64,000 bases of DNA. Source: Rhynchopus sp. YZ270_cl-10 (lineage: Eukaryota). Of the stretch, positions 1 to 41,094 are shown piece after piece. Numbering within the stretch: position 1 is the first letter of the stretch; the number at the start of each line of letters is the position of its first letter. The stretch covers positions 1,302,001 through 1,366,000 of the forward strand of contig OZ037838.1 in assembly GCA_964035575.1 (NCBI GenBank), written 5' to 3'. The notes under the pieces are model-generated. The model was not told the DNA's origin. It did no database searches and saw only the letters and a list, made by a program, of their open reading frames with translations. A program made the position numbers and the translations under genes.

Positions 1-501
1 ACCCAGTGGGGCGGGAGCATGGCAGTGTCGGACTGTGGTGGGTGGGTGCTCACGTGCTCCAAAAGTGAGAACAACGCACGTCTGTGGGATGTGAACACAG
101 GTGAAGCTGTGGCATGTGTGCCTATGTCAAGGTGCGTTGTAGCGCTTTCAAGGTCTGCCTCTGTCTTTGCTGTGGGGGTCGATGTGGATGGGGTACAGAG
201 TGTGCAGCTCTACGACTGGAGTGGTGCGGCTCTTCAGAACGCTACTATCTCTGGAAGTGTCTGTGGCGTGCAATTCACCCAGTGTGGGAAGTACCTTGTG
301 GCCCGTTCGCAAGATTATGCTGATAAAGGCTCATACGCAAAGCTGCACCAGTATGATGTGGCGACCATGTCCTGTGTACTTGTGATCCCGGACGTCAGCA
401 ATCAGCCATTTGCGATATCACCGTGTTCGTGTGTGGTTGTGTTCGTATCCTCCGACGAGACCACTATTAGGACAAGACATCTGTACCCCCACAACGAGTG
501 A
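1..501 (+). CDS. Ubl-WD40 family copy 1, 5'-truncated by the window edge (propeller blades 4-7)
   Basis: Open frame from base 1 to TGA at 499-501, with family blocks AVSDCGGWV, RLWDVNTGEAVACVP, QFTQCGKYLV, QYDVATMSCV and TRHLYP. Confidence 0.85.
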   Translation, partial: TQWGGSMAVSDCGGWVLTCSKSENNARLWDVNTGEAVACVPMSRCVVALSRSASVFAVGVDVDGVQSVQLYDWSGAALQNATISGSVCGVQFTQCGKYLVARSQDYADKGSYAKLHQYDVATMSCVLVIPDVSNQPFAISPCSCVVVFVSSDETTIRTRHLYPHNE

Positions 502-922
502 TGTTCATGCTTTGGCACCATGTGAAATGGGTGTGGTGACTTACCCCCTTGTATTCCGTGGAGGCGGAAGAACTGGTGTCGTCAACAGAAGCCTGCGTCT
601 TGCCACCACACACCTATCCAGTGATGGCAGATCTGCATCCACGAGCAAGACACCGCAGACCACCTTGTCGCAGCCGAACACCACATCGCCTCCCGCCAGG
701 CCGCCCTCGTCGCCCTCCACACAGAGATGTGCGCCATGGTGAGACCCATTCATGTCCTCACTGCTGTTTATTTTTGTCCTGTACCCCAGAACTTCTACCC
801 CAACCCAAAACAACGACCCCCATCCCTCGTCCCCTCTTTCCACGTGTGCACCCTCTCAGCTCCTTCAACTGTCCACCCAACAGAACATTCAATTGCATCA
901 CACCAACACAGCTCTTGAAACA

Positions 923-2056
923 ATGATGGATGTGACCTTTGTGCTGGAAGAGTCAGGCGTGACTGCGACAGTGGAGGTGCCGTGCGGGGCAGACGCTGCA
1001 GCGGCAAAGGAGGTTGCGTGCACGGCGCTTGCTGTCTCGCCTGCGTCTGTCGAGATGCGCATCGGCACGCAGGTGCTGGAGGGGACGTGCCGTCTGCAGG
1101 ACACTGCGTTTGGTGCAGGGGTGCAGGTTGTGCTTGCCCGCCCTCGCTTTGCTGACATCAAGTGTCCTGCTGAGTACAGCGCGGATGGGGGCGCGACGTA
1201 TATGTCGCTGTCACGTTGTGGAACGGTCTGCGTTTTTGTGCACTGGAATGGGCTTGTTGAAGGTTTCGACACAGAAACCTTCGACACTGTCTTCTCGTTT
1301 GGAGTGAGAGGTATAGAATGCGCTTTGATGGTACGCGGTGCGCCTGTCATCTCGGTTCACGGTCCACCTGCCATCTCACGGTGCATGACACGCTGCTACC
1401 TGGCGTGTGCGCATCACCTTCTCGAGGTTGCGCTTCCGGGTGGGGAGGTGCTCCGCAAAGTCGAAGGCTCCTCGATGGCAGTGTTCGCGTGTGGCAGTGT
1501 TGTTGTCTCAAAGGGCAAAGACGGCGTCTCTGTGTATGACGAAGACCTGACGTTGCTCCGCTTTCTCTCGCACGAAGGGTGTGAGGGTGAGGCAGTATCG
1601 GACTGTGGTGGGTGGGTGATCACCTCCTCCCTCACTGAGATGAAGGTACGTCTGTGGGATGTGAACACAGGTGAAGCTGTGGCATGTGTGCCTGAGGGTG
1701 ACTGGTGTTCAGTGGCGCTTTCACGGTCTGCCTCTGTCTTTGCTGTGGGGGTGGACAACACCGTGCACCTCTATGACTGGAGTGGTGCGGCTCTTCGCAG
1801 TATTGATGTAGGTGGGGTTGTCGTTGTCATGCAGTTCACCCCGTCTGGGAAGTACCTTGTGGTGGGGATACATGATGACGAAGATCCTCATTATACACAC
1901 CTGCACCAGTATGATGTGGCGACCATGTCTTGTGTGAGTGAACTGCAATGCTCATTTGAGTCATTTGCGATATCGCCATGTTCACGTGTTGTTGTGGTAT
2001 GGGAAGCAGATACCAACATTGCAACAAGACATCTGTACCCATACAACAGTCAGTGA
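923..2056 (+). CDS. Ubl-WD40 family copy 2 (ubiquitin-like domain + 7-blade beta-propeller)
   Basis: ATG-ATG at 923/926 starts the conserved MDVTFVLEESGVTATVEV...LEGTCRLQDT...VQVVLA beta-grasp-like segment, followed by seven WD-like blades. The upstream ORF extension is not conserved between copies. Confidence 0.88.
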   Translation: MMDVTFVLEESGVTATVEVPCGADAAAAKEVACTALAVSPASVEMRIGTQVLEGTCRLQDTAFGAGVQVVLARPRFADIKCPAEYSADGGATYMSLSRCGTVCVFVHWNGLVEGFDTETFDTVFSFGVRGIECALMVRGAPVISVHGPPAISRCMTRCYLACAHHLLEVALPGGEVLRKVEGSSMAVFACGSVVVSKGKDGVSVYDEDLTLLRFLSHEGCEGEAVSDCGGWVITSSLTEMKVRLWDVNTGEAVACVPEGDWCSVALSRSASVFAVGVDNTVHLYDWSGAALRSIDVGGVVVVMQFTPSGKYLVVGIHDDEDPHYTHLHQYDVATMSCVSELQCSFESFAISPCSRVVVVWEADTNIATRHLYPYNSQ

Positions 2057-2941
2057 TGTGTGACCAGGGGGGAGGGTGGCATAATTGTAGTGTCTGATAA
2101 CTGTAAACTGGCAGATATAATGGGGAATAGTCAGCCTACCTTTTTTTTTTTTACCCTCAACAACGCCCGCAAACCCTTTTTGCGGAGCAAAAAACGAAAA
2201 ATGGCGCCGCGGGCAAAAAAAAATTGGGTCCAGCCCTGGACGGTGCCGGATTTTTTTTGTCGATATTTTTTTCCCTTACCCCAGAAAAGGTAATTTATGT
2301 GGTCCACACGCGCTGGTTTTTGTATCTCGCTAATTTTTATCAAAAAGCCTAGTTTCGAGTGCGAAACGTTTCTCCATGTATTGCACGGGAAACAATATGA
2401 CAAACAGGTGCAGGGTAGTTCCGTGCATATCATAGAACTGGCACCTTGTGTGTCTTCCAAAAACCAAAAGCGTTGTGTGAAGTTTTGAAGGAAGGAAAAA
2501 TAAAACCACAACATGCAACACATAACAGTACCTCTCCCCCACCTCATCACTCCCTCCGTTTGTGGTGGAGCAAAGAAGAAGACAAAACAAAGAAAAATAG
2601 CGGATCTCATGCTCGGGGTGTCTGCACTAATCCAAACCAAATTTTCAAAAAAAGTTAGAAGAAAAGTTAGTGGAGCACACTCTAGGGTGGCTACACTAAT
2701 ACAACCAATTTTCAAAAAAAAAAAAAAAAAAAGATAGAAATTTCAAAAACAAAACATTCGCCCAATACAATGGACCTAAAAATTTACCCCCACCAAGTGT
2801 TCCTCTCTCCTTTTCTCTGCCTCTTTCTAGCATTGATGAAGACACTGCAACATAAAAGGAACACACTCACCTCGCTCCACATATTTAATCCCCCTTCCAC
2901 CGCCACCCCAACTACCACATTGCAGTGTATTGAATAAGAGA

Positions 2942-4051
2942 ATGGATGTGACCTTTGTGCTGGAAGAGTCAGGCGTGACTGCGACAGTGGAGGTGCCGTG
3001 CGAGGCGGACGCTGCAGCGGCAAAGGAGGTTGCGTGCACGGCGCTTGCTGTCTCGCCTGCGTCTGTCGAGATGCGCATCGGCACGCAGGTGCTGGAGGGG
3101 ACGTGCCGTCTGCAGGACACTGCGTTTGATTCAGGGGTGCAGGTTGTGCTTGCCCGCCGCTTTGCCAACATCAAGTGTCCTGCTGAGTATCGTGTACAGA
3201 GGGTGCAGAACTTATCGCTGTCTCGTTGTGGAACACTCTGTGTCTATGGTTGTTATGGTACGTTTGACAATGATTATGTTGCACATGTTGATGGCTTCGA
3301 CACAGAAACCTTCAACACTGCCTTCGCTTGTACTCTAGACAGTGGCTGCTTCATGTACGGTCCGCCTACCCTCTCACAGTGCAAAACATGCTGCTACGTG
3401 CCGTGTGGGGATGATTTACGCAAGGTTGCGCTTCCTGGTGGGCAGGTGCTCCGCAAACTCGACGTCCGCTCATACCTAGTATTTGCATGTGGCGGTGTTG
3501 TTGTCTCCAAAGGCAAAAACGGTCTCTCTGTGTATGACGAAGACCTGACGTTGCTCCGCACTCTCTCGCACAAGGATTGCAAGGACATGGCAGTGTCGGA
3601 CTGTGGTGGGTGGGTGATCACCTCCTCCTACAGTGAGAAGAACGCACGTCTGTGGGATGTGAACACAGGGGAAGCTGTAGCATGTGTGCCTGCGGGGGGC
3701 AAATACCAAGTGGCGCTTTCACGGCATGCCGCTGTCTTTGCTGTGGGAGGTGCTGACAGCATCCACCTCTATGACTGGGGAGGTACTGAAGTTCACAGGT
3801 CGATCGGAGGTGGGGAGGTGGGGTGCACGAAACTGCAGTTCACCCCGTGTGGGAAGTACGTTGTGTCTGCGACGCTAGCCGGCAACATAGAACATACACT
3901 GCACCAGTACGATGTGGCGACCATGTCCTGTGTGCGCGTGATCCCGAACGGCAGCTCTCTGTTTGCAATATCGCCGTGTTCACGTGTGGTTGTGTTTAGG
4001 AGTTTTGACGGCAACACCATTGAGACGAGACTTCTGTACCCACGTGAGTGA
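2942..4051 (+). CDS. Ubl-WD40 family copy 3
   Basis: Intact ORF from the conserved ATG at 2942, same architecture. Confidence 0.88.
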   Translation: MDVTFVLEESGVTATVEVPCEADAAAAKEVACTALAVSPASVEMRIGTQVLEGTCRLQDTAFDSGVQVVLARRFANIKCPAEYRVQRVQNLSLSRCGTLCVYGCYGTFDNDYVAHVDGFDTETFNTAFACTLDSGCFMYGPPTLSQCKTCCYVPCGDDLRKVALPGGQVLRKLDVRSYLVFACGGVVVSKGKNGLSVYDEDLTLLRTLSHKDCKDMAVSDCGGWVITSSYSEKNARLWDVNTGEAVACVPAGGKYQVALSRHAAVFAVGGADSIHLYDWGGTEVHRSIGGGEVGCTKLQFTPCGKYVVSATLAGNIEHTLHQYDVATMSCVRVIPNGSSLFAISPCSRVVVFRSFDGNTIETRLLYPRE

Positions 4052-5491
4052 GTGATGTTTGTTACGACTTGCCCGAGGCAGTGCCTGACGGAATCTCGGA
4101 GGGGTATTCGCACGTATTTGTATTTAGTAAACACGTAGTATGTGACAAAATGCTCGTGACCCTCGTGAAAAGTCGCGCGTCTGCGTATCCCCCTCCCCGC
4201 TTGTTTCCCCCCGCTCTCTTTTCTCCCCTCTGCTTCACGACACTTTCTGTACTTCAGGCAAACACAACAATACCGTAAATCAAGTCGAAGAAAAAGAACA
4301 GTGGAGATTGCACGTGGCAACACAACTGAGGCAACTACACTACTCCAACAATTTCAGGGAAATAGCTTGGGTACTTTTACTGGTTTCAAAACCAGAACGT
4401 TACTGGTTTGGGGGAAAATAAAAAAAAAAAGTGGGATTCGGGATTCAGTTTTTCTTCGCCCCCGCACCACTTTCCCACTCACAGAAGAAAGCCTCACACG
4501 TAAGCGAACCCCTAAAAAGGGTTCATTGAGTGACTCTGTGGTTTAAAAAGCTGTATGTTTTGCGCTATACCCTAATTTTTTTCGCCTGCGGCGCCACTTT
4601 ATATTATTTTTTTGCTCCGCAAAAAAATAGAGTTTACAATATCTTAGGGAACCCCCTTGCATTTTGCAGCCACAAATGCAACTTGACCAAAGATGCAAAA
4701 AGTTGACCGTTTTTTTTTTCAAAATGACCCACCGTTGCAACAGCCCCTGCTTCTGGAAGACGTATTGACTTTGTACGGTTAGTGGTAAGGTGCAAGACCA
4801 AGCTCCGTTAACACAGGATTATATTCCATTTTCTTTGTTGTCTCGCACCCTTTGCCTCTCCACTCTGTGGTTGGCAGGGAAGCGCGCGACGACCGCTTTC
4901 AACCGGGGAAAATTTTTTTCTAAACCAGCAAACCAGCAACATTCGAAAAGTGCACCTTTCAAGCTACTACCCTGAACAATTTATCAAAGAAGAAAAAAAA
5001 AGTGGAAGCGAACAACAAACAACCTTTACTTTTTTCCCCCCCCGTTTATAGTCTTTTGAGCAACAAGCAAAGAGGAACGAGTCTCTCGAGCATTTTCGGT
5101 TTACCTTCCACACATTTTTTTTTGGTTCTCTTCACGACACTATTTTTTCCACGATCATGGCATGACGCGCACTGCCCAGACGATTGCATGGAGTAGTACC
5201 CACCTCAAATAGACACGTGTAGTAGAGTGGAGCGAATGCTTGGGCTCAAATGACCATTTTGACCAAAAAAACAAATTGGATTTGAGACTGTGCCAGATGT
5301 TTACTGATCCAGATCGGTACAAAGGAACCACAACAACTGGTTTGACCACCCTTTACGAAGTTTACCTCTTTTTCGCTGTTACCTCGTTTGAACCCTCTCC
5401 TGTTGGGTGGAACTGCAGACACAACGAAAACATCAAACACACGCAACAAAACAACCCACACATCTCCTTCCTAACAGAGGAAGACAAAACC

Positions 5492-6614
5492 ATGGATGTG
5501 ACCTTTGTGCTGGAAGAGTCAGGCGTGACTGCGACAGTGGAGGTGCCGTGCGAGGCGGACGCTGCAGCGGCAAAGGAGGTTGCGTGCACGGCGCTTGCTG
5601 TCTCGCCTGCGTCTGTCGAGATGCGCATCGGCACGCAGGTGCTGGAGGGGACGTGCCGTCTGCAGGACACTGCGTTTGATGCAGGGGTGCAGGTTGTGCT
5701 TGCCCGCCCTCGCTTTGCCGACATCAAGTGTCCTGCAGAATATAATGTGCAGCAGTGTCGCTGGGTAGAGATGGACTGGCGCGTTGGTGGTACTGCGTTT
5801 TCGGAGTACGTATCGCTGTCGCGTTGTGGCGCACTCTGCCTCTACAGTGATGGCAGGCATGTTGGTGGCTTCGACACAGAAACCTTTCTCAATGTCTTCG
5901 ACCTCACAATGGCCTATCGTCCGTACCGTGCGCCTGCCATCTCGCAGTGCAAGACACGCTGTTACATGGCTTGTAGGGAACACTTAAGCGAAGTTGCGCT
6001 TCCGGGTGGGGAGGTGCTCCGCAAAGTTGACGGCATCTCGCGCTCAGTGTACGCGTGTGGCAGTGTTGTCGTCTCCCTGAGCCTACACGGGGTCTCTGTG
6101 TATGACGAAGACCTGACGTTGCTCCGCTCTCTCTCGCATTTGCAGTGCAGGAAAGCGGCAGTATCGGACTGTGGTGGGTGGGTGATCACCTGCTCCCTTC
6201 AGTGAGAAGAACGCACGTCTGTGGGATGTGAACACAGGTGAAGCTGTGGCATGTGTGCCTATCGAGGAGGAATACCACGAAGTAGCGCTTTCACGGTCTG
6301 CCTCTGTCTTTGCTGTGGGGGACTCTCACGAAGTACGGCTCTATGACTGGAGAGGTGAGGCTCTTCGCAGTGTTGATGTGGATGGGGATATCGACGACAT
6401 GCACTTCACACCATGTGGAAAGTACCTTGTGGTCAATGTTTTCAGTCGCCGAAGTTCTAAGCTGCAACAGTATGATGTGGCGACCCTTTCCTGTGTGCAT
6501 GTACTCACGGAAATAGGACGTATCGGGTTTGTGATATCGCCCTGTTCACGTGTCGTTGTGTTTCCGTCCAATAATCGTAAAAACATTGTGACACGCCACC
6601 TGTACCCAGAATAG
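5492..6614 (+). pseudogene. Ubl-WD40 family copy 4 with a single +1 frameshift (pseudogene or assembly error)
   Basis: TGCTCCCTTCAGTGAGAAG at 6191 versus TGCTCCTTCAGTGAGAAG in copy 9: one extra C at 6195-6197. ORFs 5240..6205 and 6228..6614 join into one full-length protein. Confidence 0.75.
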
Positions 6615-6875
6615 TTGGTGCCTGCGTGTGACGTTAGCCCTGTGCCACCAGAGTCGTCTACACCAGGAGCTCTGTCTTTGCTGTGGACATATTCATGTGC
6701 TCACTGCCCGTTCTATTTGGCCTTTGTGTTCAGCTTCCTTTCCTGTACTCAGAACTTTTACCCCGTCCAAACAAAAGACCCCCATCCTCTTTCCACGTGT
6801 CCACCCTCTCAGCTCCTTCAACTGTCCACCCAACAGAACATTAAATTACATCACACCAACACAGCTCTTGAAACA

Positions 6876-8012
6876 ATGATGGATGTGACCTTTGTGCTGG
6901 AGGAGTCCGGCGTGACTGCGACAGTGGAGGTGCCGTGCGAGGCGGACGTTGCAGCGGCAAAGGAGGTTGCGTGCACGGCGCTTGCTGTCTCGCCTGCGTC
7001 TGTCGAGATGCGCATCGGCACGCAGGTGCTGGAGGGGACGTGCCGTCTGCAGGACACTGCGTTTGATTCAGGGGTGCAGGTTGTGCTTGCCCGCCGCTTG
7101 GCCGACATCAAGTGTCCTGCTGAGTACAGTATTGAGGTGCCACCTGGAACGCATCGGATGTATCTACATCGCTTTTCGCTGTCTCCTTGTGGAGCACTCT
7201 GCCTCTGTACACATCAGCAAGGCTATGTCACCGGCCTCGATACAGAAACCTTCAGCCCTGCCTTCAAGTTCAAAGTAGACTTTGAGGTGCGCGGTGAGCC
7301 TGCCATCTCACGGTGCAAGACACGCTGCTACCTGGCGTGCAAGGAAGTCCTTCTCGATGTTGCGCTTCCGGGTGGGGAAGTGCTCCGTAAAGTCGACGGC
7401 ATCTCGCGCTCAGTGTTCGCGTGTGGCGGTGTTGTTGTCTCCCAAGGCGAAAGAAGCGTCTCTGTGTATGACGAAGACCTGACGTTGCTCCGCTCTCTCT
7501 CGCTCGAAGGGTGTGCGGACATAGCAGTGTCGGACTGTGGTGGGTGGGTGATGACCTCCTCCAACAAGGAGAACAACGTACGTCTGTGGGATGTGAACAC
7601 AGGTGAAGCTGTTGCATGTGTACCGTTGGGGGAGCGGCGCTGTAGAGTGGTGGCGCTTTTACGGTCTGCCTCTGTCTTTGCTGTGGGGCAGAAAGAAGTC
7701 CGGCTCTATGATTGGAGTGGTGAGGCTCTTCGCAGTATTGATGTGGATGGGTCTCTCGAGTCTGTGCAGTTCACCCCGTGTGGGAAGTACCTTGTGGTAT
7801 GTGGAGAGGTCCTGGTTCCTGTTGAGGGTGAATACGGAACTGAGTATGATGAGGATGGTTACCTGCACCAGTATGATGTGGCGACCATGTCCTGTGTGCG
7901 TGTAATATCTCAAGAGTCATATGTGTCCTTTGCGATATCGCCGTGTTCACGCGTTGTTGTGGGTATGCAGCCAGATGGTGTCATTGTGACGAGATATCTG
8001 TACCGTGAGTGA
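6876..8012 (+). CDS. Ubl-WD40 family copy 5
   Basis: Intact ORF from ATG 6876/6879, with a long acidic loop in blade 6. Confidence 0.88.
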   Translation: MMDVTFVLEESGVTATVEVPCEADVAAAKEVACTALAVSPASVEMRIGTQVLEGTCRLQDTAFDSGVQVVLARRLADIKCPAEYSIEVPPGTHRMYLHRFSLSPCGALCLCTHQQGYVTGLDTETFSPAFKFKVDFEVRGEPAISRCKTRCYLACKEVLLDVALPGGEVLRKVDGISRSVFACGGVVVSQGERSVSVYDEDLTLLRSLSLEGCADIAVSDCGGWVMTSSNKENNVRLWDVNTGEAVACVPLGERRCRVVALLRSASVFAVGQKEVRLYDWSGEALRSIDVDGSLESVQFTPCGKYLVVCGEVLVPVEGEYGTEYDEDGYLHQYDVATMSCVRVISQESYVSFAISPCSRVVVGMQPDGVIVTRYLYRE

Positions 8013-8366
8013 TGTATGACCAGGGGGAGGGGAGGGGGGGTGGTGATGAATATAACCCAGAGTCCCAGCAAAAAAACCCAAGCCTCTCATAACACCCCAA
8101 GAAACTCCCCTTTCAGCCCTGTTGCTGCTTTTCTCTTGTTTGCATGCCACAGGTCGCCCACCTTACACGCTGCCCATGCGGTGCTCTAGTGTGGGTGACA
8201 GATCACGATGCCGAGCATCATTTTCCATTCGTCACCTCTCACAACGAGAACCACCACAAACATGCAACACAGAACAACACCTCTCCCCCACCCACCTCAT
8301 CACTCCCTCCGTTTGTGGTGGAGCAAACGTGCTGATTTGCACCTTCTCACGAAGCAACGCAACACA

Positions 8367-9488
8367 ATGATGGATGTGACCTTTGTGCTGGAAGAGTCAG
8401 GCGTGACTGCGACAGTGGAGGTGCCGTGCGAGGCGAAGGTTGCAGCGGCAAAGGAGGTTGCGTGCACGGCGCTTGCTGTCTCGCCTGCGTCTGTCGAGAT
8501 GCGCATCGGCACGCAGGTGCTGGAGGGGACGTGCCGTCTGCAGGACACTGCGTTTGATTCAGGGGTGCAGGTTGTGCTTGCCTGCCGCTTTGCCGACGCC
8601 AAGTGTCCTGCTGAGTACACTGCAGCGCGTGCGACAGACTTGTTACTGTCGCGTTGTGGAGCGCTCTGCGTTTATAATTTTAATTCGCACGGGAGTGTGC
8701 ATGTTGGCGGCTTCGACACAGAAACCTTCGACACTATCTTCTCCTTTACAGTGGGCAATGTCGTGCACGGTGCGCCTGCCATCTCGCAGTGCAAGACACG
8801 CTGCTACCTGGCGTGTTGGAACGCAGGACTTCTCGAGGTTGCGCTTCCGGGTGGGGAGGTGCTCCGCAAAGTCGACAGCACCTCGTACTCAGTGTACGCG
8901 TGTGGCGGTGTTGTTGTCTCCGATGACAAAGACGGCGTCTCTGTGTATGACGAAGACTTGACGTTGCTCCGCTCTCTCTCGCACGAAGCGTGCGAGGACA
9001 TGGCAGTGTCGGACTGTGGTGGGTGGGTGATCACCTCCTCCAACAAGGAGAGGAACGTACGTCTGTGGGATGTGAACACAGGTGAATCTGTTGCATGTGT
9101 GCCGATGGAGGGGTGGTGTGGGGTGGCGCTTTCACGTTCTGCCTCTGTCTTTGCTGTGGATTGCTATACCACCGTGCACCTCTATGACTGGAGTGGTGCG
9201 GCTCTTGGCAGCTTTGATGTGGGTGGCAGTGTCAAGGGCATGCAGTTCACCCAGTGTGGGAAGTACCTTGTGGTGAGGGTTCGGGTTGTGCAACCTTTGG
9301 ATGATGGTGATTGCATTGTAGAGCGGCACCTGCACCAGTATGATGTGGCGACCATGTCCTGTGTGCATGAGATACCGCAAAGGTTTGTCGAGTCATTTGC
9401 GATGTCGCCGTGTTCACGTGTCGTTATGGTTTTGCAATCCAATGGCGTCATTGTAACGAGACATCTATACCCACACAACAGTGAGTGA
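8367..9488 (+). CDS. Ubl-WD40 family copy 6
   Basis: Intact ORF from ATG 8367/8370. Confidence 0.88.
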   Translation: MMDVTFVLEESGVTATVEVPCEAKVAAAKEVACTALAVSPASVEMRIGTQVLEGTCRLQDTAFDSGVQVVLACRFADAKCPAEYTAARATDLLLSRCGALCVYNFNSHGSVHVGGFDTETFDTIFSFTVGNVVHGAPAISQCKTRCYLACWNAGLLEVALPGGEVLRKVDSTSYSVYACGGVVVSDDKDGVSVYDEDLTLLRSLSHEACEDMAVSDCGGWVITSSNKERNVRLWDVNTGESVACVPMEGWCGVALSRSASVFAVDCYTTVHLYDWSGAALGSFDVGGSVKGMQFTQCGKYLVVRVRVVQPLDDGDCIVERHLHQYDVATMSCVHEIPQRFVESFAMSPCSRVVMVLQSNGVIVTRHLYPHNSE

Positions 9489-9903
9489 TGTGTTCCCAGA
9501 GAGGGTGGTGATGAATATACCCAGCAAAAAACAGACAAGTCCCCTTTTGTAGGTGGTATTGGGGGATAGGTATCATATTTGACACCTTAAATGTCCATAA
9601 TTGCCGTTTTTTTCCCTCTATTCACAACCACGAATTCACTGCGATTTGGAAACCCCTTACTCCGGGCCTCGACCTTCTGTTGTTGGCCGCAGGGTACGTG
9701 TGCTTTCATCCGGAGTGGTGGTGGAATCTTACGTGGGTCAGTCGGAGGTGCCTGCATCAATAACTTCAATCTCCTTTCCTACGACAAGAACCACCACAAA
9801 CATGCAACACAGAACAACACCTCTCCCCCACCCACCTCATCACTCCCTCCTGTGGTGGAGCAAACGTGCTGATTTGCACCTTCTCACGAAGCAACGCAAC
9901 ACA

Positions 9904-31096: not shown

Positions 31097-32236
31097 ATGA
31101 TGGATGTGACCTTTGTGCTGGAAGAGTCAGGCATGACTGCGACAGTGGAGGTGCCGTGCGAGGCGGACGTTGCAGCGGCAAAGGAGGTTGCGTGCACGGC
31201 GCTTGCTGTCTCGCCTGCGTCTGTCGAGATGCGCATCGGCACGCAGGTGCTGGAGGGGACATGCCGTCTGCAGGACACTGCGTTTGATGCAGGGGTGCAG
31301 GTTGTGCTTGCCCGCCCTCGCTTTGCCGACATCAAGTGTCCTGCTGAGTGCAGTGTAGAGGCGCCACCTGGAAGGACAACTGGTGGTCAGCGGATGAATC
31401 GATTAACGCTGTCACCTTGTGGAGCACTCTGCCTCTTTACACAGGAGGATGGCTATGTAACCGGCCTCGATACAGACACCTTCAGCCCTGCCTTCAGGTT
31501 CAAAGTAGACTTTGAGGGGTACGCTGTGCCTGCCATCTCACGGTGCAAGACACGCTGCTACCTGGTGTCCTGGGAAGGTCTGCACGAGTTTGCGCTTCCG
31601 GGTGGGGAGTTTCTCCGCAAAGTCGACGGCACCTCGTTCCAAGTGTTCGCCTGTGGCAGGGTTGTTGTCTCCCGTGGCGAAGACGGGGTCTCTGTGTATG
31701 ACGAAGACCTGACGTTGCTCCACACTCTCTCGCACGAAGGGTGTGGGTGTGTGGCAGTGTCGGACTGTGGTGGGTGGGTGATCACCTCCTCCTACAAGGA
31801 GAGGAACGCACGTCTGTGGGATGTGAACACAGGTGAAGCTGTGGCATGTGTGCCTGCGGATGGGGGCATCGTGGCGCTGTCACGGTCTGCCTCTATCTTT
31901 GCCGTGGAGTGCTCTCTGGCTGAGAAAGCGCAGCTCTATGACTGGAGTGGGGCGGCTCTTGGCAGCTTTGAAAAGGAGGAGTCTCGCGTATGTGCCGTGC
32001 AGTTCACTCCATGTGGGAAGTACGTCGTCGTTGGGTTTGATAACAATGATGTTCGATATTGTGGAGAGTATACTCTGCACCAGTATGATGTGGCGACCAT
32101 GTCCTGTGTGCGTTCGATACAGGACAGCAAAGGTGTATTTGCGATCTCGCCGTGTTCACGTGTGGTTGTGTCCAAGGCAGCAGGAGGTGACGCAGGAGGC
32201 GACGTCCTTGTGACACAACATCTGTACCCCTACTGA
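31097..32236 (+). CDS. Ubl-WD40 family copy 12
   Basis: Intact ORF from ATG 31097/31100; closest to copy 9. Confidence 0.88.
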   Translation: MMDVTFVLEESGMTATVEVPCEADVAAAKEVACTALAVSPASVEMRIGTQVLEGTCRLQDTAFDAGVQVVLARPRFADIKCPAECSVEAPPGRTTGGQRMNRLTLSPCGALCLFTQEDGYVTGLDTDTFSPAFRFKVDFEGYAVPAISRCKTRCYLVSWEGLHEFALPGGEFLRKVDGTSFQVFACGRVVVSRGEDGVSVYDEDLTLLHTLSHEGCGCVAVSDCGGWVITSSYKERNARLWDVNTGEAVACVPADGGIVALSRSASIFAVECSLAEKAQLYDWSGAALGSFEKEESRVCAVQFTPCGKYVVVGFDNNDVRYCGEYTLHQYDVATMSCVRSIQDSKGVFAISPCSRVVVSKAAGGDAGGDVLVTQHLYPY

Positions 32237-32779: not shown

Positions 32780-33844
32780 ATGGATGTGACCTTTGTGCTG
32801 GAAGAGTCAGGCGTGACTGCGACAGTGGAGGTGCCGTGCGAGGCGGACGTTGCAGCGGCAAAGGAGGTTGCGTGCACGGCGCTTGCTGTCTCGCCTGCGT
32901 CTGTCGAGATGCGCATCGGCACGCAGGTGCTGGAGGGGACGTGCCGTCTGCAGGACACTGCGTTTGATGCAGGGGTGCAGGTTGTGCTTGCCTGTCCTCG
33001 CTTGGCCGACATCAAGTGTCCTGCTCAGTACACTGCAACGCATGTGGGACCCTTGTCACTGTCGCCTTGTGGAACGCTCTGCGTCTATAGTAGCAGGGAT
33101 GGGCATTTTGATGGTTTCGACACAGAAACCTTCGACACTGTCTTCTCGTTCATACTGGACACTCTAGTGTCCGGTCTGCCTGCCATCTTACAGTGCAAGA
33201 CACGCTGCTACTTGGCGTGTGAGAATTGCCTTCTCGAGGTTGCGCTTCCTGGTGGGGAGGTGCTCCGCAAAGTTGACGGCACCTCGAACGCAGTGTTCAC
33301 GTGTGGCGGTGTTGTTGTCTCGAAGGGCGAAGACGGCGTCTCTGTGTATGACGAAGACCTCACGTTGCTCCGCTCTCTCTCGCACAAAGGGTGCACGACC
33401 ACGGTAGTGTCTGACTGTGGTGAGTGGGTGATCACCTCCTCCCTCAGTGATCAGAAGTCCCGTCTGTGGGATGTGAACACAGGTGAAGCTGTGGCATGTG
33501 TGCCTTCGGGGTGGTTGCCTAGAGTGGCGCTTTCACGGTCTGCCTCTGTCTTTGCTGTGGGGCAGGGTGAAGTCCACCTCTATGATTGGAGTGGTGCGGC
33601 TCTCTGCAGTGTTGATGTGCGTGGGGATATCCAGGGCATGCAGTTCACCCCGTGTGGGAAGTACCTTGTGGTAAGGAATCTAAACGAGCTGCACCAGTAT
33701 GATGTGGCGACCATGTCCTGTGTGCATGTGATACCGCATAGGGAGGTTATGTCCTTTGCAATATCGCCGTGTTCACGTGTTGTGGTTTTGCAACGAGATC
33801 GCGTCATTGTGACGAGGCATCTGTACCCACACAACAGTGAGTGA
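32780..33844 (+). CDS. Ubl-WD40 family copy 13 (shortest loops)
   Basis: Intact ORF from ATG 32780. Confidence 0.88.
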   Translation: MDVTFVLEESGVTATVEVPCEADVAAAKEVACTALAVSPASVEMRIGTQVLEGTCRLQDTAFDAGVQVVLACPRLADIKCPAQYTATHVGPLSLSPCGTLCVYSSRDGHFDGFDTETFDTVFSFILDTLVSGLPAILQCKTRCYLACENCLLEVALPGGEVLRKVDGTSNAVFTCGGVVVSKGEDGVSVYDEDLTLLRSLSHKGCTTTVVSDCGEWVITSSLSDQKSRLWDVNTGEAVACVPSGWLPRVALSRSASVFAVGQGEVHLYDWSGAALCSVDVRGDIQGMQFTPCGKYLVVRNLNELHQYDVATMSCVHVIPHREVMSFAISPCSRVVVLQRDRVIVTRHLYPHNSE

Positions 33845-34368
33845 TGTGTGAGGGGAGGGGAGGGAGGGAAGTGATGAAAAAACCCCAGGGTACCAGCAAA
33901 AAAACCCAAGACCCTCAACACACCCCCAATAAACTCCCCTTTCAGCTCTGTTGCTGCCTTTCTCTTGTTTGCCTCACAGGTCGCCCACCTTACACGCTGC
34001 CCATGCGGCGCTCTCGTGTGGGTGACTGATCACGATGCCGAGTATCATTTTCCTTTCATCACCTCCCACAACAAGAACCACCACAAACATGCAACACAGA
34101 ACAACATTTAGCAGCAGTTTCCGTTTTCCCCACTCTAGCCCCTCCCCGCACATGCATTTTGCACTAACGGTGCCAATTGAAAACAGATTCCTCCCTCATT
34201 CTCCCCCCTTTTGCTTTTGCTTGATTTCTTTAGCCTCTAAGAGTACGATCAGAAACCCCACACAAATTTGCAACACAGAACAACACCTCTCCTCCACCTC
34301 ATCACTCCCTCCGTTTGTGGTGGAGCAAACGTGCTGATTTGCACCTTCTCACGAAGCAACGCAAAACA

Positions 34369-35481
34369 ATGATGGATGTGACCTTTGTGCTGGAAGAGTC
34401 AGGCGTGACTGCGACAGTGGAAGTGCCGTGCGAGGCGGACGTTGCAGCGGCAAAGGAGGTTGCGTGCACGGCGCTTGCTGTCTCGCCTGCGTCTGTCGAG
34501 ATGCGCATCGGCACGCAGGTGCTGGAAGGGACGTGCCGTCTGCAGGACACTGCGTTTGATGCAGGAGTGCAGGTTGTGCTTGCCCGCCCTCGCTTTGCCA
34601 ACATCAAGTGTCCTGCTGAGTACACTGTAGGTGTAGAGGTGATACCTGGAATGCATGAAGGGAGTGTATATGAATTTTCGCTGTCTCCTTGTGGAGCACT
34701 CTGCCTCTTTGCACAGGAGGAAGGCAATGTGACCGTCCTCGATACAGAAACCTTCAGCCCTGCCTTCAAGTTCAAAGTAGACATTGTGGTGTGCGGTCCT
34801 CCCGCCATCTCACGGTGCAAGACACGCTGCTACATGGCGAGTAGGAATTGTCTTGCCAAGGTTGCGCTTCCGGGTGGGGAGGTGCTCCGCAAAGTCGATG
34901 GCAACTCGTACGCAGTATTCGCGTGTGGCGGTGTTGTTGTCTCCCAAGGTGACGACGGTGTCTCTGTGTATGACGAAGACCTGACGTTGCTCCGCTTTCT
35001 CTCGCATAAACGGTGCAGGGACGTGGCAGTGTCGGACTGTGGTGGGTGGGTGATCACCTCCTCCAACAAGGAGAAGAACGCACGTCTGTGGGATGTGAAC
35101 ACAGGTGAAGCTGTGGCATGTGTGCCTGCTAATAGGATCGTGTCGCTTTCACGATCTGCCTCAGTCTTTGCTGTGGTGTGTAACGAAGTGCAGCTCTATG
35201 ACTGGAGTGGTGCGGCTCTTCGCAGCTTTGCAAATGCAGGTCAAAAAATTTCTGGCCTGCAGTTCACTCCCTCCGGGAAGTATCTCGTTGTACGGTTGAT
35301 GGATGTGGGTGCTGAAAAATATTCACTGCACCAGTATGATGTAGCGACCATGTCCTGTGTGCGTGTGTTACCGGCCTCCGACGACTGCGGCCAGTTTACG
35401 ATATCGCCGTGCTCACGTGTGGTACTATTTACGAACAGCAAACGAGACGCTATTGTGACGAGACATCTGCACCCCTACTGA
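34369..35481 (+). CDS. Ubl-WD40 family copy 14
   Basis: Intact ORF from ATG 34369/34372. Confidence 0.88.
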   Translation: MMDVTFVLEESGVTATVEVPCEADVAAAKEVACTALAVSPASVEMRIGTQVLEGTCRLQDTAFDAGVQVVLARPRFANIKCPAEYTVGVEVIPGMHEGSVYEFSLSPCGALCLFAQEEGNVTVLDTETFSPAFKFKVDIVVCGPPAISRCKTRCYMASRNCLAKVALPGGEVLRKVDGNSYAVFACGGVVVSQGDDGVSVYDEDLTLLRFLSHKRCRDVAVSDCGGWVITSSNKEKNARLWDVNTGEAVACVPANRIVSLSRSASVFAVVCNEVQLYDWSGAALRSFANAGQKISGLQFTPSGKYLVVRLMDVGAEKYSLHQYDVATMSCVRVLPASDDCGQFTISPCSRVVLFTNSKRDAIVTRHLHPY

Positions 35482-35830
35482 GTGATGTTTTGCGAGAGGT
35501 TGTGTTTGTGCAGCAGGATAGTACTCCCTTACAACAGGAAAAACAAGACATGCAGCAAAAACAGACCAAGAGAAAACAAAGAGGTTTTGAAAAGGGACAA
35601 TAAAAAGTTTCTCCTCTTTAAGTTTCTGCTTTTATTTTGTCCTACTCCTGGTCGTGATGTACGCAACTTTCCTGCAGTCAACGCAGGGAAAGAAGAATCA
35701 ACGATGTGACACAGGATATGGGCAGAACCGACACCTTTGTCTCAACCAAACCAATTCTATTCTCACATCCTTCCACGTGTACCAACATACCACATCACAG
35801 TGCGTTAAACACAAAGGATCCTGATACATA

Positions 35831-35863
35831 AAACAATGGATGTGACCCTTGCACCCTCGACCT
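35831..35863 (+). pseudogene. Deletion scar of a lost Ubl-WD40 copy
   Basis: AAACAATGGATGTGACC (family start) is fused directly to TTGCACCCTCGACCT, a motif from the downstream spacer of copies 7, 9 and 12. Confidence 0.65.
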
Positions 35864-36451
35864 CCACTTAGGGGGTCTCCTGGTCAGTATATTAGCTGTC
35901 CGAAAAATTAGTAAATAAATAAAAAATGCTCTATGTGCTCAGAAACGGCACAGGGGTCCCCCAGAAAACATTTTCTGCACAATTCGTCACAACCCGCACT
36001 GGATTAGTGCCTTTTTTTGGGCCTAAAATTCAAAAATTCAAAAATGGCTTTGTACAAGGGCGTTTTTTGCGTGTTTTTTCATGATTTTTCAAAGTCGCCA
36101 AAAATCATGTAAAATACGGCTTCCCACCCAACATTCTCCCCACAGCGTCGTTCTGACACCCATATGCCCCAAAAAAAACAGGTTTTTTTATATTTTTTTC
36201 CACACCCAATGCATCATAAAAAATACACATTTCCACCAAACTCTACTAACCCACCGCACCCACAGGAAAATTTCTTAACTATGTGTACCTAAGTGTTCAG
36301 ATCGACGCGTTTTTAAAAAAAAGTAAAACAAAATCATAAAAAATGGGGTAAAACGCCACCTGGGGTCACAAGGCCCAGGCTCCTACCTTTACAGGTAGGG
36401 GAGCTGTTGAGTGACCCATCGGAAAATGGGTCAATGTCTATTCATGAAATC

Positions 36452-37336
36452 TTTTGAGCCGTACTGTATTGTGCCAATTGGTCGCCAGCTAAAATGTCAC
36501 TATTCGAACCAGTTCTGTCTTCTGTAACGTGTCTTATGGGTGCATGCTGCGTGCGCTGGCTGTAATTGCGATATTTTGATTCAAATTGTATTGTACTAAT
36601 TGGTCGCCAGCTAAAATGTCACTAATCGAACTAGTTCTCACATCTGTAACCTGTCTTATGGCTGTATGCTGCGTGCGCTGGCTGCAATTGCGATATTTTG
36701 AGAAGAATTGTATTGTACTAATTGGTCGCCAGCTAAAATGTCACTATTCGAACCAGTTCTGTCTTCTGTAACGTGTCTTATGGGTGCATGCTGCGTGCGC
36801 TGGCTGCAATTGCGATATTTTGAGTCAGATTGTATTGTACTAATTGGTCGCCAGCTAAAATGTCACTATTCGAACTAGTTCTGTCTTCTGTTACCTGTCT
36901 TATGGCTGTATGCTGCGTGCGCTGGCTGCACTTGCGATATTTTGAGTCAGATTGTATTGTACTAATTGGTCGCCAGCTAAAATGTCACTATTTGAACCAG
37001 TTCTGTCTTCTGTTACCTGTCTTATGGGTGTATGCTGCGTGCGCTGGCTGCAATTGCGATATTTTGAGTCGAATTGTATTGTACTAATTGGTCGCCAGCT
37101 AAAATGTCACTATTTGAACCAGTTCTGTCTTCTGTAACCTGTCTTATGGGTGCATGCTGCGTGCGCTGGCTACAATTGAGATATTTTGAGCCGAATTGTA
37201 TGGTACTACTTGGTCGCCAGCTAAAATGTCACTATTCGAACCAGTTCTCACATCTGTAACCTGTCTTATGGGTGCATGCTGCGTGCGCTGGCTGCAATTG
37301 CGATATTTTGATCCGAATTGTATTGTGCTAATTGGT
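36452..37336. repeat. 122-bp tandem satellite A, ~7.2 copies
   Basis: Units start at 36465, 36587, 36709, 36831, 36953, 37075, 37197 and 37319. Confidence 0.95.
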
Positions 37337-37339
37337 TAT

Positions 37340-37893
37340 GAAGGGACGTGTCTTATTCTTGCGGTATATTTTGGATGATATCGGCTACGCTGCGGTGCTC
37401 GCAACAGCTGGGGGTGGTGGTGGAGATGTGATGCAGGTGCTGACATTGAGGTAAAGAACAAGGACGCTGCGTGTTGAGAAGGTGTCGGTCAGAGCAGGTG
37501 CGGAAGTGTGTGTCACAGACAACAATCGAAACACATGTCTTATCCTTGCGGCACATCACACCGAGACTGTACGCACTCTTCTGTGCCTGCCTGAGGTGGA
37601 TTGTGTGAATCAGTCAAATACGAGCGGCTTCACTCCACTGCATGGCGCAGTGTCACAGAAACACCCAGATGTGTCGAAGTTGCTCATTGATGCAGGGGCA
37701 GACATCGAAGCCGTTAATTACATAGGCAGGACACCTCTTCACTGTGCTTGTGAGGTTGGGGCACTCGAAATTGTGGAGATGTTGGTGAAAGCAGGTGCGG
37801 ACGAGAGTGTGGTGGACAACAAGAGTCACACATCTCTCAACATTGCGGCATATCGTGGGCATACCGAGACTGTGCGCTATCTTGTGGGCTTGC
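37340..37893 (+). pseudogene. Ankyrin-repeat gene fragment captured in the transposon
   Basis: GFTPLHGAV...LLIDAGADIEA, GRTPLHCAC...LVKAGAD and TSLNIAAYRGHTETVRYLV motifs; no ATG start; truncated by the internal TAGGGGGTCTC end. Confidence 0.8.
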
Positions 37894-37979
37894 TAGGGGG
37901 TCTCCTGGTCAGTATATTAGCTGTCCGAAAAATTAGTAAATAAATATAAAATGCTCTATGTGCTCAGAAACGGCATAAC

Positions 37980-38256
37980 TTGACATGTGTTTATGGAATT
38001 GGTCCCGTACCAAGGTGTCTTGTTCGGTGTGATTTGTGCTGAAATGGATAGATTCTGAGGGTAAATGCTGCAAGCGCTAGGTATTCCGTGACGCAAATAA
38101 ATTGACATGTGTTTGTGGATTTGGTCCCGTACCAAGGTGTCTTGTTGGATGTGATTTGTGCTGAAATGGATAGATTCTGAGGGTAAATGCTGCAAGCGCT
38201 AGGTATTCCGTGACGCAAATAAATTGACATGTGTTTGTGGAATTGGTCCCGTACCA
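37980..38256. repeat. 122-bp tandem satellite B, ~2.3 copies
   Basis: TGACATGTGT recurs at 37981, 38103 and 38225. Confidence 0.92.
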
Positions 38257-38274
38257 CAACCGCAACCGCAATAA

Positions 38275-39473
38275 TTAGGGAAGACGGCTGGCAAGCGGAA
38301 GAGAGATGAGAGTGATGCAGAGAGTGATGCAAAGAAGCAGAAGAAGTCCACTGCAAAGAATGCTGCTGCGAACAGCCAGGGGAAAGAGGAGTCTGCGAGT
38401 GGGGTGAAGCGCAGCAGTGATGACGGCGCCGATGCCGAGTGGCCCGGACTCGATATCGCTATGGCTGTGAGCAAGCAGGAGTCCGCAGGCCCGGCGGCAG
38501 GGACGACACGTGCCAGTGGGTTGCCACATGGAATACAGGATACGGGGTTTCTGCACCAGGAAGAACTTCTGGTGCACAACATGTAGAGGGTTCTCCCCAT
38601 TGCGCTGGACGATGTGGAAGATTCGACCTATGGATTCTCCTCTTTGCACATGGTGGGATACGAAACCTCCTTAGCAGTGTCGCCGCCAGGATTCCAGGCC
38701 AATGATGTGACGTCGCTCACCTCGCGCCCTATCGCAACTCGGGGAGACGGAGCATGTGCGTTGCATGCGTTGCTGGGGAGGCATTTGTTGCATGGCGAGA
38801 TTGTGTGCCGAGGTCTGCCAGATGTGACGGAGTCACAGCTCAGGGACAGGCCTTGGCATCATGCCAGGGTATATGCGTTGAGAGAGCTCGTCAAGCATAG
38901 TGGCTTGTTCTTGAGGTGTGCCCGACAGTTTTGCGGCTTGACTCCAAGCTCGATAAGCACTGTGCGGACGCGAAGGCCGAGTTGACCAGACTCGAGTCGC
39001 TACGAGGTGCTCTCATTTTTGAGCACGTCAAGGCTAGGGATTTGTGTGCTGAAGATTCGCAGTTCTTACTGGAAATGAGGACGCTGCATGAACTTCATCG
39101 CGAGATGAGTCACGCGGACTTCATGCCACACGTGAATCCGGATTTGTGCAATGAGGGTTACAAGACGTGTGACCACATTCGTGAACGTGTGCGCGACGTT
39201 GCTGTTGCTGATCTCTTCCCGCAGGATGAGGCTGTTCAGCGTCAGACAGATGTGATCACGCGCAAGCAGGAGGAGTTCTATTCCTCAAGAGGCGTACAGG
39301 AAGAAGTTCGTCAGTCGGGACTATTACCTGTCTGTGAAGAAATCGAGGCAGTGGCAGTGGCGTTCGGCAAAAGGGTGCTATTGGTCCACGAGGACACCAA
39401 TACTTGTGTTGTGATGAATCCGGAAGCGACCCATGTTCGCGTCATCCTGCAACAAGGGGACAGCAGCACCTGA
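38275..39473 (+). pseudogene. Degenerate gene with an NLS-like basic N-terminus and an OTU-like cysteine protease motif
   Basis: One frame runs KRKRDESD... through a TAG at 38584 to TRGDGACALHALLG (compare OTU GDGxC.F.AL). After a frameshift comes EEIEAVAVAFGKRVLLVH...VRVILQQG, similar to an OTU C-terminal half. Confidence 0.45.
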
Positions 39474-39963
39474 GAAGTGCCATTTCTCCCTGCTGAAACA
39501 AAACTCGCGCACGCCACCAAATTTCCAGTGTCCGCAGTGTCGCACCACTTATTTTTTTCGCATTTTGAGGGGGGGGAAATGCAAAATGAAAACAAAATTT
39601 TGGTAGATTCACAGAATTCAGATTTTTGCTAAGGTGCTGGCAGCTGGCCCCAAAAAAAAAAAAAAAATATTTTCCCCCCACATTTTTTGGTCCAGGGTCA
39701 CAAAAAAAAATCTCCGATTCCTGAAACCCCAAATCCTGGCGGAAACCCTGCCGGGGGGGGAAAAACAAAAAAAAAAAATTTTGTTTTTTTTGACAAAAAC
39801 GGCCAAAAACGACAAAATAGTTTTTACGACAAAAATTCCTTCACAAATTGTACAGGATGAGACCCCCTACTCCACTCAGGCGTAACGCAAACATCACAAA
39901 CACACAAAACAAAACTACACACCTCATCTCCCAACAGAGGTGGAACAAGAAGAAGACAAAACA

Positions 39964-41094
39964 ATGGATGTGACCTTTGTGCTGGAAGAGTCAGGCGTGA
40001 CTGCGACAGTGGAGGTGCCGTGCGAGGCGGACGTTGCAGCGGCAAAGGAGGTTGCGTGCACGGCGCTTGCTGTCTCGCCTGCGTCTGTCGAGATGCGCAT
40101 CGGCACGCAGGTGCTGGAGGGGGCGTGCCGTCTGCAGGACACTGCGTTTGATGCAGGGGTGCAGGTTGTGCTTGCCCGCCGCTTTGCCGACATCAAGTGT
40201 CCTGCTGAGTACAATGTTTGTGTGAGGGAGGCAGAATTTTTGTCGCTGTCTCCTTGTGGAGCACTCTGCCTCTATTGTTATGAGATATGTGCTGGTGGCG
40301 ATTACGTTGCGCATGTTGGTGGCTTCGACACAGAAACCTTCAACGCTTCATTAGCTTTTTCAGAAGGCAACAGCCTTTTCATGTACGGTCCGCCTGCCAT
40401 CTCACAGTGCAAGACGCGCTGCTACCTACCGTGTGGGCAAGACTTACGCAAGGTTGCGCTTCCTGGTGGGGAGGTGCTCCGCAAAGTTGAAGGCCGCTCG
40501 TACGCAGTGTTCGCGTGTGGTGGTGTTGTTGTCTCCCAAGGCAATGACGGAGTCTCTGTGTATGACGAAGACCTGACGTTGCTGCGTTCTATCTCACACA
40601 AGAGTTGTGAAGGCTTGGCAGTATCGGACTGTGGTGGGTGGGTGATCACCTCCTCGAAGGAGAGGAACGCACGTCTGTGGGATGTGAACACAGGTGAAGC
40701 TGTGGCATGTGTGCCTATGTCAAGGTACGCTGTAGCGCTGTCACGGTCTGCCTCTGTCTTTGCTGTGGTGGGCTCTGTGGCTGAGGCAGCGAGAGTGCAG
40801 CTCTACGACTGGAGTGGTGCGGCTCTTCAGAACGCCACTATATCTGGAAGTGTCTATGGCGTGCAATTCACCCACTGTGGGAAGTACCTTGTGGTCCATG
40901 TACAAAAGCGCACTGACGATGAAGCAGAATATGAGCTGCAACAGTATGATGTGGCGACCATGTCCTGTGTACTTGTGATCCCGGACGTCACCGGTGCGTC
41001 ATTTGCGATATCACCGTGTTCGCGTGTGGTTGTGTTCGTATCCTCCGACAGCACCAATATTTCGACAAGGCATCTGTACCCCCACAACGAGTGA
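39964..41094 (+). CDS. Ubl-WD40 family copy 15
   Basis: Intact ORF from ATG 39964; its 3' part and downstream spacer closely match copy 1. Confidence 0.88.
   Translation: MDVTFVLEESGVTATVEVPCEADVAAAKEVACTALAVSPASVEMRIGTQVLEGACRLQDTAFDAGVQVVLARRFADIKCPAEYNVCVREAEFLSLSPCGALCLYCYEICAGGDYVAHVGGFDTETFNASLAFSEGNSLFMYGPPAISQCKTRCYLPCGQDLRKVALPGGEVLRKVEGRSYAVFACGGVVVSQGNDGVSVYDEDLTLLRSISHKSCEGLAVSDCGGWVITSSKERNARLWDVNTGEAVACVPMSRYAVALSRSASVFAVVGSVAEAARVQLYDWSGAALQNATISGSVYGVQFTHCGKYLVVHVQKRTDDEAEYELQQYDVATMSCVLVIPDVTGASFAISPCSRVVVFVSSDSTNISTRHLYPHNE

Follow-up and report, generated by a model that had tools for sequence, protein, structure and literature searches.

A large ubiquitin-like/propeller gene family with a hypervariable top face in Rhynchopus: a candidate recognition repertoire

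In WD40 proteins the DA and BC loops form the interaction face, and in the repeats of HET-E the positively selected sites follow an i/i+2 pattern (accessible part of PMC1805685). Nematode F-box adaptors have been proposed to act against pathogen proteins (PMC8120010, accessible text), and the ubiquitin-like (Ubl) domains of Ytm1 and Rsa4 are handles for the AAA+ ATPase Rea1/midasin (PMC8122580, likewise in its accessible part). Here we describe a gene family from Rhynchopus sp. YZ270_cl-10 whose proteins place a Ubl domain ahead of a WD40-type propeller with a hypervariable top face. The window, that is, the whole stretch analyzed, comprises 64,000 nucleotides of contig OZ037838.1 (assembly GCA_964035575.1, positions 1,302,001 to 1,366,000, forward strand), and its own coordinates are used throughout. 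The family is real and large and apparently undescribed, and it is likely a lineage-specific, large inherited set of recognition proteins.

The propeller and its variable top face

Residue numbering follows copy 15 (P0001). In an AlphaFold model built with 119 sequences, residues 78–376 form a seven-bladed WD40-type propeller (predicted local distance difference test (pLDDT) 76–97 by block), in which DSSP assigned seven four-stranded blades and an N-terminal strand closing the ring. Structure searches gave a match at Z 28.7 (root-mean-square deviation (rmsd) 2.5 Å over 274 residues; VIA) and a Foldseek E value of 2.5e-15, with G-beta, WDR5, Cdc20 and other seven-bladed WD40 domains matched at 8–20% identity and no outstanding single relative. 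The WD40 family PF00400 was matched by 86 of the 119 members at E ≤ 0.1. Ubl domain, linker and propeller account for all 354–378 residues, and the blades within one protein differ from each other. The preliminary description, made from the letters of the window, had listed seven blade motifs and a set of constant blocks, all of which were found in the alignment of the copies; the structure prediction that it proposed returned both folds. Six of the seven AB turns carry a near-invariant cysteine (112–119 of 119 proteins; residues 98, 149, 185, 223, 305 and 352) at a site where WD40 repeats usually carry aspartate, and an S/T-P-C-G/S signature persists in very diverged paralogs.

Column entropies come from 115 of the 119 aligned proteins, the window-encoded members being left out. 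Of the 57 columns at ≥2.5 bits, 55 fall in the top-face DA and BC loops, which bears out the earlier placement of divergence just before strand A and just after strand B. This level was reached by 55 of 82 top-loop columns compared to 0 of 52 bottom-loop (AB/CD) columns (Fisher p = 2e-17), and by 0 of 71 Ubl columns. As strand ends had first been set by hand after the entropy was seen, the test was repeated with boundaries taken from DSSP only; the contrast survived (p = 2e-12 and 3e-16), with top versus bottom entropies of 1.96 versus 0.55 bits for strand halves and 2.51 versus 0.33 bits for coils. Loop length varies in all 14 top loops, and 11 of 13 bottom loops have a single length. The BC loop of blade 6 ranges from 5 to 26 residues and has 118 distinct sequences in 119 proteins, and in short loops variable positions alternate with conserved ones (178/180, 232/234 and 296/298). 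In 109 of the 119 proteins the top loops carry a net negative charge. As modeled, the proteins are built like an adaptor: the Ubl domain sits on a constant face, and the diversified, putative binding face lies on the opposite side.

Within the window, a six-frame scan combined with tblastn recovered one gene family of 15 copies, all on the + strand, in two clusters (eight copies in 1–14057 and seven in 25590–41094). The count of 15 and the two clusters had been described before and stand; the accompanying view of 15 whole intronless genes holds for the 12 intact copies, each a single open reading frame (ORF) of 354–378 amino acids with 67–73% identity to copy 15, one further copy being cut by the window start and two being frameshifted. 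Spacers between neighboring copies are often 270–570 bases long. The features are as follows.

1..501, + strand: copy 1, 3' part only (blades 4–7), cut by the window start; tblastn 76% to residues 218–376 of copy 15
926..2056, + strand: copy 2, intact, 376 aa
2942..4051, + strand: copy 3, intact, 369 aa
5492..6614, + strand: copy 4, interrupted by a single frameshift near 6200; pseudogene or sequence error
6879..8012, + strand: copy 5, intact, 377 aa
8033..8369, no strand: example of a spacer type recurring between unrelated copies, with alike stretches at 28423–28716 and 33900–34106 (self-BLASTN and flank comparison)
8370..9488, + strand: copy 6, intact, 372 aa
9904..10983, + strand: copy 7, intact, 359 aa
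12957..14057, + strand: copy 8, intact, 366 aa
25590..26714, + strand: copy 9, intact, 374 aa
27029..28144, + strand: copy 10, intact, 371 aa
28717..about 29930, + strand: copy 11, interrupted; pseudogene with at least 3 frame changes
31100..32236, + strand: copy 12, intact, 378 aa
32780..33844, + strand: copy 13, intact, 354 aa
34372..35481, + strand: copy 14, intact, 369 aa
39964..41094, + strand: copy 15 (P0001), intact, 376 aa
39964..40176, + strand: Ubl domain of copy 15, beta-grasp, residues 1–71, net charge −8, no di-Gly
39964..40212, + strand: homogenized DNA tract of copy 15, from the ATG to near codon 83; the 12 intact copies have a mean pairwise nucleotide divergence of 0.024 here
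40195..41091, + strand: seven-bladed WD40-type propeller of copy 15, residues 78–376, its 14 top-face loops variable and its 13 bottom loops near-constant

At the DNA level, selection was analyzed in the 12 window copies that are intact. Positive selection acts on a subset of the top-face residues: the most variable columns have a ratio of nonsynonymous to synonymous substitution rates (dN/dS) of about 2. Forty-seven columns picked on the 115 other paralogs gave dN/dS 1.85 (p = 2e-5), or 2.21 (p = 1e-4) with multi-nucleotide changes, which improve the codon-model fit; the nine picked columns in indel-free loops gave 2.6–3.6 (p = 0.01). A tree-free estimate at the picked columns was 1.98 (bootstrap 1.55–2.46), a value reached by none of 80 sets simulated without positive selection under the same column picking (highest 1.18). 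Strands and bottom loops are under purifying selection: with class-specific synonymous rates, dN/dS was 0.52 and 0.43, respectively (both p < 0.001).

Several results speak against extending positive selection to the top face as a whole. We ran codon models of our own coding, in which a nucleotide tree fixed the branch proportions. Comparison of M1a with M2a gave a likelihood-ratio statistic of 308, with 20% of sites at dN/dS 4.8 and 38 of 42 high-posterior sites in top loops; the top loops have raised synonymous rates too (25, compared to 5.6 in bottom loops, 9.5 in strands and 0.7 in the Ubl domain), which inflates the value of 4.8. Taken over all 75 top-loop codons, dN/dS was 1.28 (p = 0.02; class-wide estimates 1.15–1.28), falling to a nonsignificant 1.17 with multi-nucleotide changes, and the 22 codons of indel-free top loops gave 0.9–1.1. 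A grid model with variable synonymous rates flagged nine sites, or three with multi-hits. The null simulations contained neither indels nor conversion. The remaining top-face residues may be merely unconstrained. A test for dN/dS above 1, as had been suggested at the outset, came out clearly at the most variable columns and only slightly (1.15–1.28) over the top loops together.

The ubiquitin-like domain and its uniformity

The full-length model left the Ubl domain at pLDDT below 50 because the alignment lacked diversity there. Refolded separately with diverged paralogs, residues 1–71 adopt a beta-grasp fold (pLDDT 85) with template-modeling (TM) scores of 0.87–0.91 to ubiquitin and ISG15 and a structural match at Z 13.2 (rmsd 1.5 Å over 75 residues), and the Ubl domains of Dsk2 and parkin were also matched. 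The most diverged paralog, P0149, matches archaeal ubiquitin by sequence (E = 1.2e-4). The 71-residue Ubl-like domain without a C-terminal di-Gly stands as first described, and a fold other than beta-grasp, named at the outset as a possible refutation, was not found. RRFADIK directly follows the Ubl domain in the copies; residues 71–78 are ARRFADIK-like in the 119 aligned members, with no Gly-Gly there, and the domain accordingly lacks the di-Gly for cleavage and conjugation of a type I ubiquitin-like modifier or ubiquitin fusion precursor. It is strongly acidic (net charge −8), its core residues G11, V16, V18, C20, A31, C32, V42 and L57 are invariant in the diverged set, and it is kept ahead of the propeller even in paralogs only 35–39% identical there.

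An indirect mapping, through P0149 to FAT10 and archaeal ubiquitin, places Arg45 at the position of ubiquitin Ile44 and Thr48 at that of Gly47, on what we take to be the correct ubiquitin numbering. Because Arg and Thr replace Ile44 and Gly47, direct proteasome docking of the Rad23/Dsk2 type, one of the roles initially envisaged for the domain, appears doubtful from the missing Ile44 patch. Hydropathy revealed no hydrophobic N-terminus, signal peptide or membrane segment, and the proteins are predicted to be cytosolic.

The Ubl domain is constant mainly through array-level DNA homogenization, a conclusion drawn because silent sites are equally constant and dispersed paralogs diverge like the propeller core. 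Fourfold-degenerate sites showed 54 differences in 3,099 (0.017) in the Ubl domain versus 855 in 4,444 (0.19) in conserved propeller codons, and the Ubl/core identities of dispersed paralogs were 0.35/0.40, 0.39/0.38, 0.64/0.71, 0.65/0.63 and 0.79/0.70. The low-divergence tract starts at the ATG and stops near codon 83, covering about 250 coding bases. Upstream flanks are of several unrelated types and show no correlation with any segment of the gene, one propeller clade bearing four of the types, and the Ubl-coding stretch 9904–10116 is a single identical contig in one low-coverage sequencing run. Gene conversion or unequal crossing-over within the tract is the simplest reading, since recent duplication cannot leave old propellers with a young 5' end. 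Sweeps of the tract could be driven by selection for a common partner, but the data need no such selection. An RNA element was rejected as an explanation, as no Rfam match was found within the window and the tract has no unusual RNA fold (z = −0.63).

Within the propeller, blades 3–4 are decoupled, and blades 1–2 and 5–7 still correlate. The same nearest neighbor was found in both propeller halves for 21 of 118 proteins compared to 43 of 118 in an interleaved control. Crossovers throughout the propeller were rejected, as the expected distance decay of segment correlations was not seen.

Family size, proposed function and competing explanations

A genome-wide copy survey had been recommended, and protein searches show a family far larger than the 15 copies of the window. 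With copy 15 as the query, 414 of 7,998 candidates scored were matched at E ≤ 0.001, some of the weak matches possibly being ordinary WD40 proteins. Among the best 120 of these 414, 99 lie on a 2,712,987-base contig, 16 on a 456,684-base contig and five on others, and none is a named protein. Several searches together yielded a collected set of 205 proteins; both domains could be aligned in 190 of 204 (query aside), giving at least about 190 full-length relatives, 178 of which (of 190) have an N-terminal domain ≥93% identical to the query. The N-terminal 79 residues alone retrieved 24 proteins among 1.84 billion representatives, 23 of them members of the family itself. Eight diverged members that were looked up are unnamed single records on other contigs, and we infer that all member-bearing contigs come from one genome. 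Contig scans found no relatives in viral or metagenome contigs; viral origin or cargo was rejected for want of such viral-contig relatives, the structural matches to giant-virus BTB-WD40 proteins (7–16% identity) being generic propeller likeness.

Some members encoded outside the window have additional or unusual parts. P0122, P0123, P0124 and P0126 share a C-terminal region of about 300–350 residues after the propeller, which is helical, ankyrin-like by eye and Cys-rich at its end; no Pfam match was found for that of P0122. P0125 is one predicted protein in which a family member is joined to a second Ubl-like segment, a coiled coil, a zinc finger and a region resembling a B-box (PF00643, E = 0.016); the layout is TRIM-like, and the protein may be a gene-calling fusion. 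P0121 appears to be two tandem copies joined by gene calling. Contigs from sequencing runs were uninformative as expression evidence, as eight runs cover non-coding repeats and one crosses intergenic DNA unspliced.

We propose, and give about an even chance of being right, a germline recognition repertoire in which the propellers would bind targets that the Ubl domain hands to one shared host partner. The positively selected top face would let the seven-bladed propeller engage many different target proteins, its net negative charge favoring basic ligands, and changing foreign proteins (of a virus, endosymbiont, prey or selfish element) would drive the top face apart. The N-terminal Ubl domain would pass targets to a partner of the ubiquitin or AAA-ATPase kind, recruited by a surface that is not the Ile44 patch. 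With the 250-base tract as anchor, conversion or unequal crossing-over would keep the Ubl domain uniform, let the array grow and shrink and reshuffle the flanks, with the short conserved blocks between variable loops converting less often. The steps of selection by foreign proteins and of partner recruitment are analogies to F-box/MATH-BTB adaptors and fungal NWD propellers. The label 'antibody-like', used in the preliminary description, has to be narrowed to a germline repertoire, as no sign of somatic rearrangement was seen. A bolder version, in which a protist has an intracellular, antibody-like germline repertoire of several hundred members that captures foreign proteins for one ubiquitin-system partner, with the Ubl DNA doubling as a recombination anchor for expanding and reshuffling the array, we consider rather unlikely.

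Several observations count against this proposal. The Leu8-Ile44-Val70 hydrophobic patch is not kept. At dN/dS 0.55 the Ubl domain is indistinguishable from neutrality (ratio of 1; p = 0.2), and it is not conserved at the protein level beyond the propeller core, so that the role of a shared-partner handle is a proposal by analogy; the constancy of the domain, originally taken as the mark of a conserved effector handle, is no proof of one, since in dispersed paralogs this constancy is lost at the pace of the core. Exchange within the propeller is weakly supported by a PHI-like test (p = 0.051), and two of the 14 whole window copies are broken.

The same Ubl data would suit a recognition repertoire in which the domain is a folding or stability aid or a degron, its uniformity being a by-product of conversion over the only long indel-free stretch; such proteins would act by sequestering their targets or through the constant bottom face. 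This alternative, which we hold to be unlikely, is favored by the near-neutral ratio in the Ubl domain, by the joint fall of Ubl and core identities in dispersed paralogs, and by bottom loops that are under clear purifying selection with a cysteine in six of seven AB turns; it is at odds with the retention of the Ubl domain before the propeller in paralogs 35–39% identical there and with the invariant Ubl core residues of the diverged set. That the array is largely neutral or selfish, with tandem duplication and conversion multiplying a gene whose exposed loops are unconstrained, is improbable in our estimation. The class-wide top-loop ratio of 1.15–1.28, the peak of silent divergence in the same loops and the presence of pseudogenes and truncated relatives in the family are what such an array would show, but the ratio of about 2 at independently picked columns was unmatched in 80 null simulations, bottom loops as exposed as the top ones are conserved, and 12 of 14 whole copies have kept their frames open although in-frame indels are many.

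Fungal allorecognition rests on the same top-face selection pattern (accessible part of PMC1805685), which makes internal or cell-to-cell conflict (allorecognition, mating specificity, toxin-antidote or drive suppression), or action on host or prey, a further candidate. We rate its probability as similarly low: the window copies lack a NACHT or death domain and a signal peptide, and hundreds of paralogs would suit broad surveillance better than a single incompatibility locus. Finally, a targeted mutagenic or cassette-insertion process acting directly on loop DNA could account for the concentration of silent divergence and indels in the same loops and for the better fit of models with multi-nucleotide changes. 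It seems to us very improbable, however, as variable and conserved codons alternate inside four-residue loops, pointing to selection at the protein level, codons at indel-free variable columns have no obvious single-base bias by eye, and no reverse transcriptase or template repeat was found among 15 ORFs scanned.

Genomic setting and comparison with described systems

The long ORFs around the array are also on the + strand and encode an EF-hand phosphatase, a U-box protein, an amidohydrolase, HROB, an F-box-like protein and dCache-bearing membrane proteins. A non-coding element between copies 7 and 8 (11249–12456) has terminal inverted repeats of about 100 bases, is flanked by a target-site duplication of 9 bases and contains an array of GGTACCTG. 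Sequencing-run contigs show it to be highly repeated, and it is presumably a non-autonomous Mutator-like transposon. The stretch between the clusters also encodes a small U-box protein (19320–19913; PF04564, E = 2e-10) that has a cluster of cysteines and, at its N-terminus, a predicted membrane helix; such a membrane-anchored E3 may adjoin the array by chance. Inside the second cluster, two different 122-base tandem arrays (36452–38256) lie on either side of an ankyrin-repeat ORF (37455–37943). Further along are two large membrane proteins in tandem (50979–60195), with a dCache match seen for the second; we assume that both have dCache-like extracellular regions and resemble receptor adenylate cyclase-like proteins of euglenozoans. 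An 87-base tandem array (55368–56202; 9.6 copies, 98% matches) is itself partly palindromic, and the 1.17 kb at 62080–63248 form a near-perfect palindrome, 97% self-complementary, in which no notable long coding frame occurs.

The recognition of viruses, endosymbionts and other intracellular intruders by free-living protists is largely unexplored, and this family makes the question directly testable: it offers hundreds of small, single-exon, soluble candidate binders with a uniform handle, so that one Ubl bait could be used for the machinery and a panel of propellers for the targets. The family also shows clearly how gene conversion confined to one domain can sit beside diversifying selection, and it cautions against ascribing the constancy of a domain in a tandem family to protein function as a matter of course. 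A propeller that by nature accommodates 14 variable loops is also an interesting scaffold for designed binders.

Rad23, Dsk2 and Ddi2 are proteasome shuttles with an integral N-terminal Ubl domain. The Ubl domain described here is close to theirs in fold (Dsk2 Ubl: Z 12.7, rmsd 1.4 Å over 72 residues) and differs in its strong acidity and in the Arg and Thr at the Ile44 and Gly47 positions; no UBA domain was among the Pfam matches listed, the residues being already filled by Ubl domain, linker and propeller. DCAF receptors, the DDB1-binding WD40 proteins, are marked by a WDxR motif, and a W/Y-D-x-R string occurs anywhere in only 8 of the 205 collected proteins. A housekeeping family with orthologs across eukaryotes, another early concern, was not found with the Ubl query among the 1.84 billion representatives, and the genes here are multi-copy and hypervariable.

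Nematode F-box ubiquitin-ligase adaptors, of which the original account is reportedly that of Thomas in 2006, offer a close parallel. According to the accessible part of PMC8120010, they too are two-part adaptors duplicated in tandem to hundreds of genes, in which the N-terminal module serves for docking and is conserved and the C-terminal domain serves for binding and is under positive selection. The present family differs in that its N-terminal domain is a beta-grasp ubiquitin fold and neither an F-box nor a BTB domain, and in that this domain is constant at the DNA level, whereas the F-box is reported to be under purifying selection (same source). The fungal NWD/HNWD proteins (Podospora HET-D and HET-E) share with the present family selected positions in DA loops and BC turns, i/i+2 pairs and concerted evolution within a non-self recognition family (PMC1805685, accessible part). 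Their near-identical, interchangeable repeats, however, lie within a gene behind NACHT and effector domains, in about ten genes by the same account; here whole genes are the unit, the blades are unlike, loop lengths vary widely, the genes number in the hundreds, and no NACHT domain was found in the window copies by Pfam scan or in the model. Zebrafish NLR-B30.2 genes, as described in the accessible text of PMC4852459, number nearly 400, mostly on one chromosome arm, and combine a selected recognition domain with domain-dependent gene conversion inferred from low synonymous divergence; they are vertebrate genes with NACHT, LRR and B30.2 domains and neither Ubl nor propeller.

The domain order, an N-terminal Ubl followed by a WD40 propeller, is that of Ytm1/WDR12 and Rsa4/NLE1, which are essential, conserved ribosome-assembly factors (PMC8122580, in its accessible part), in contrast to the multi-copy, hypervariable family here. 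The NLE-type Ubl of these factors is marked by an invariant MIDAS-binding glutamate. None of the Pfam matches listed was to the NLE family (one of the scans showing 25 of its 42 families), neither Ytm1 nor Rsa4 having been aligned directly, and neither protein was among the best 50 fold-search matches listed, which does not exclude them. In line with the initial impression that the family was undescribed, no expanded, diversifying Ubl-propeller family appeared in the literature searched (listings and the beginnings of abstracts), and no known system tested fits on all features. Two diplonemid genome papers (PMC10161547; bioRxiv 10.64898/2026.01.29.702485) do not mention WD40, propeller or ubiquitin in the accessible main text, and their supplements may list families. 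Although a Ubl-propeller architecture in a diversifying family was found in no paper searched, to the extent of the text accessible, the recognition logic is already known from nematode F-box adaptors, fungal NWD proteins and zebrafish NLR-B30.2 genes.

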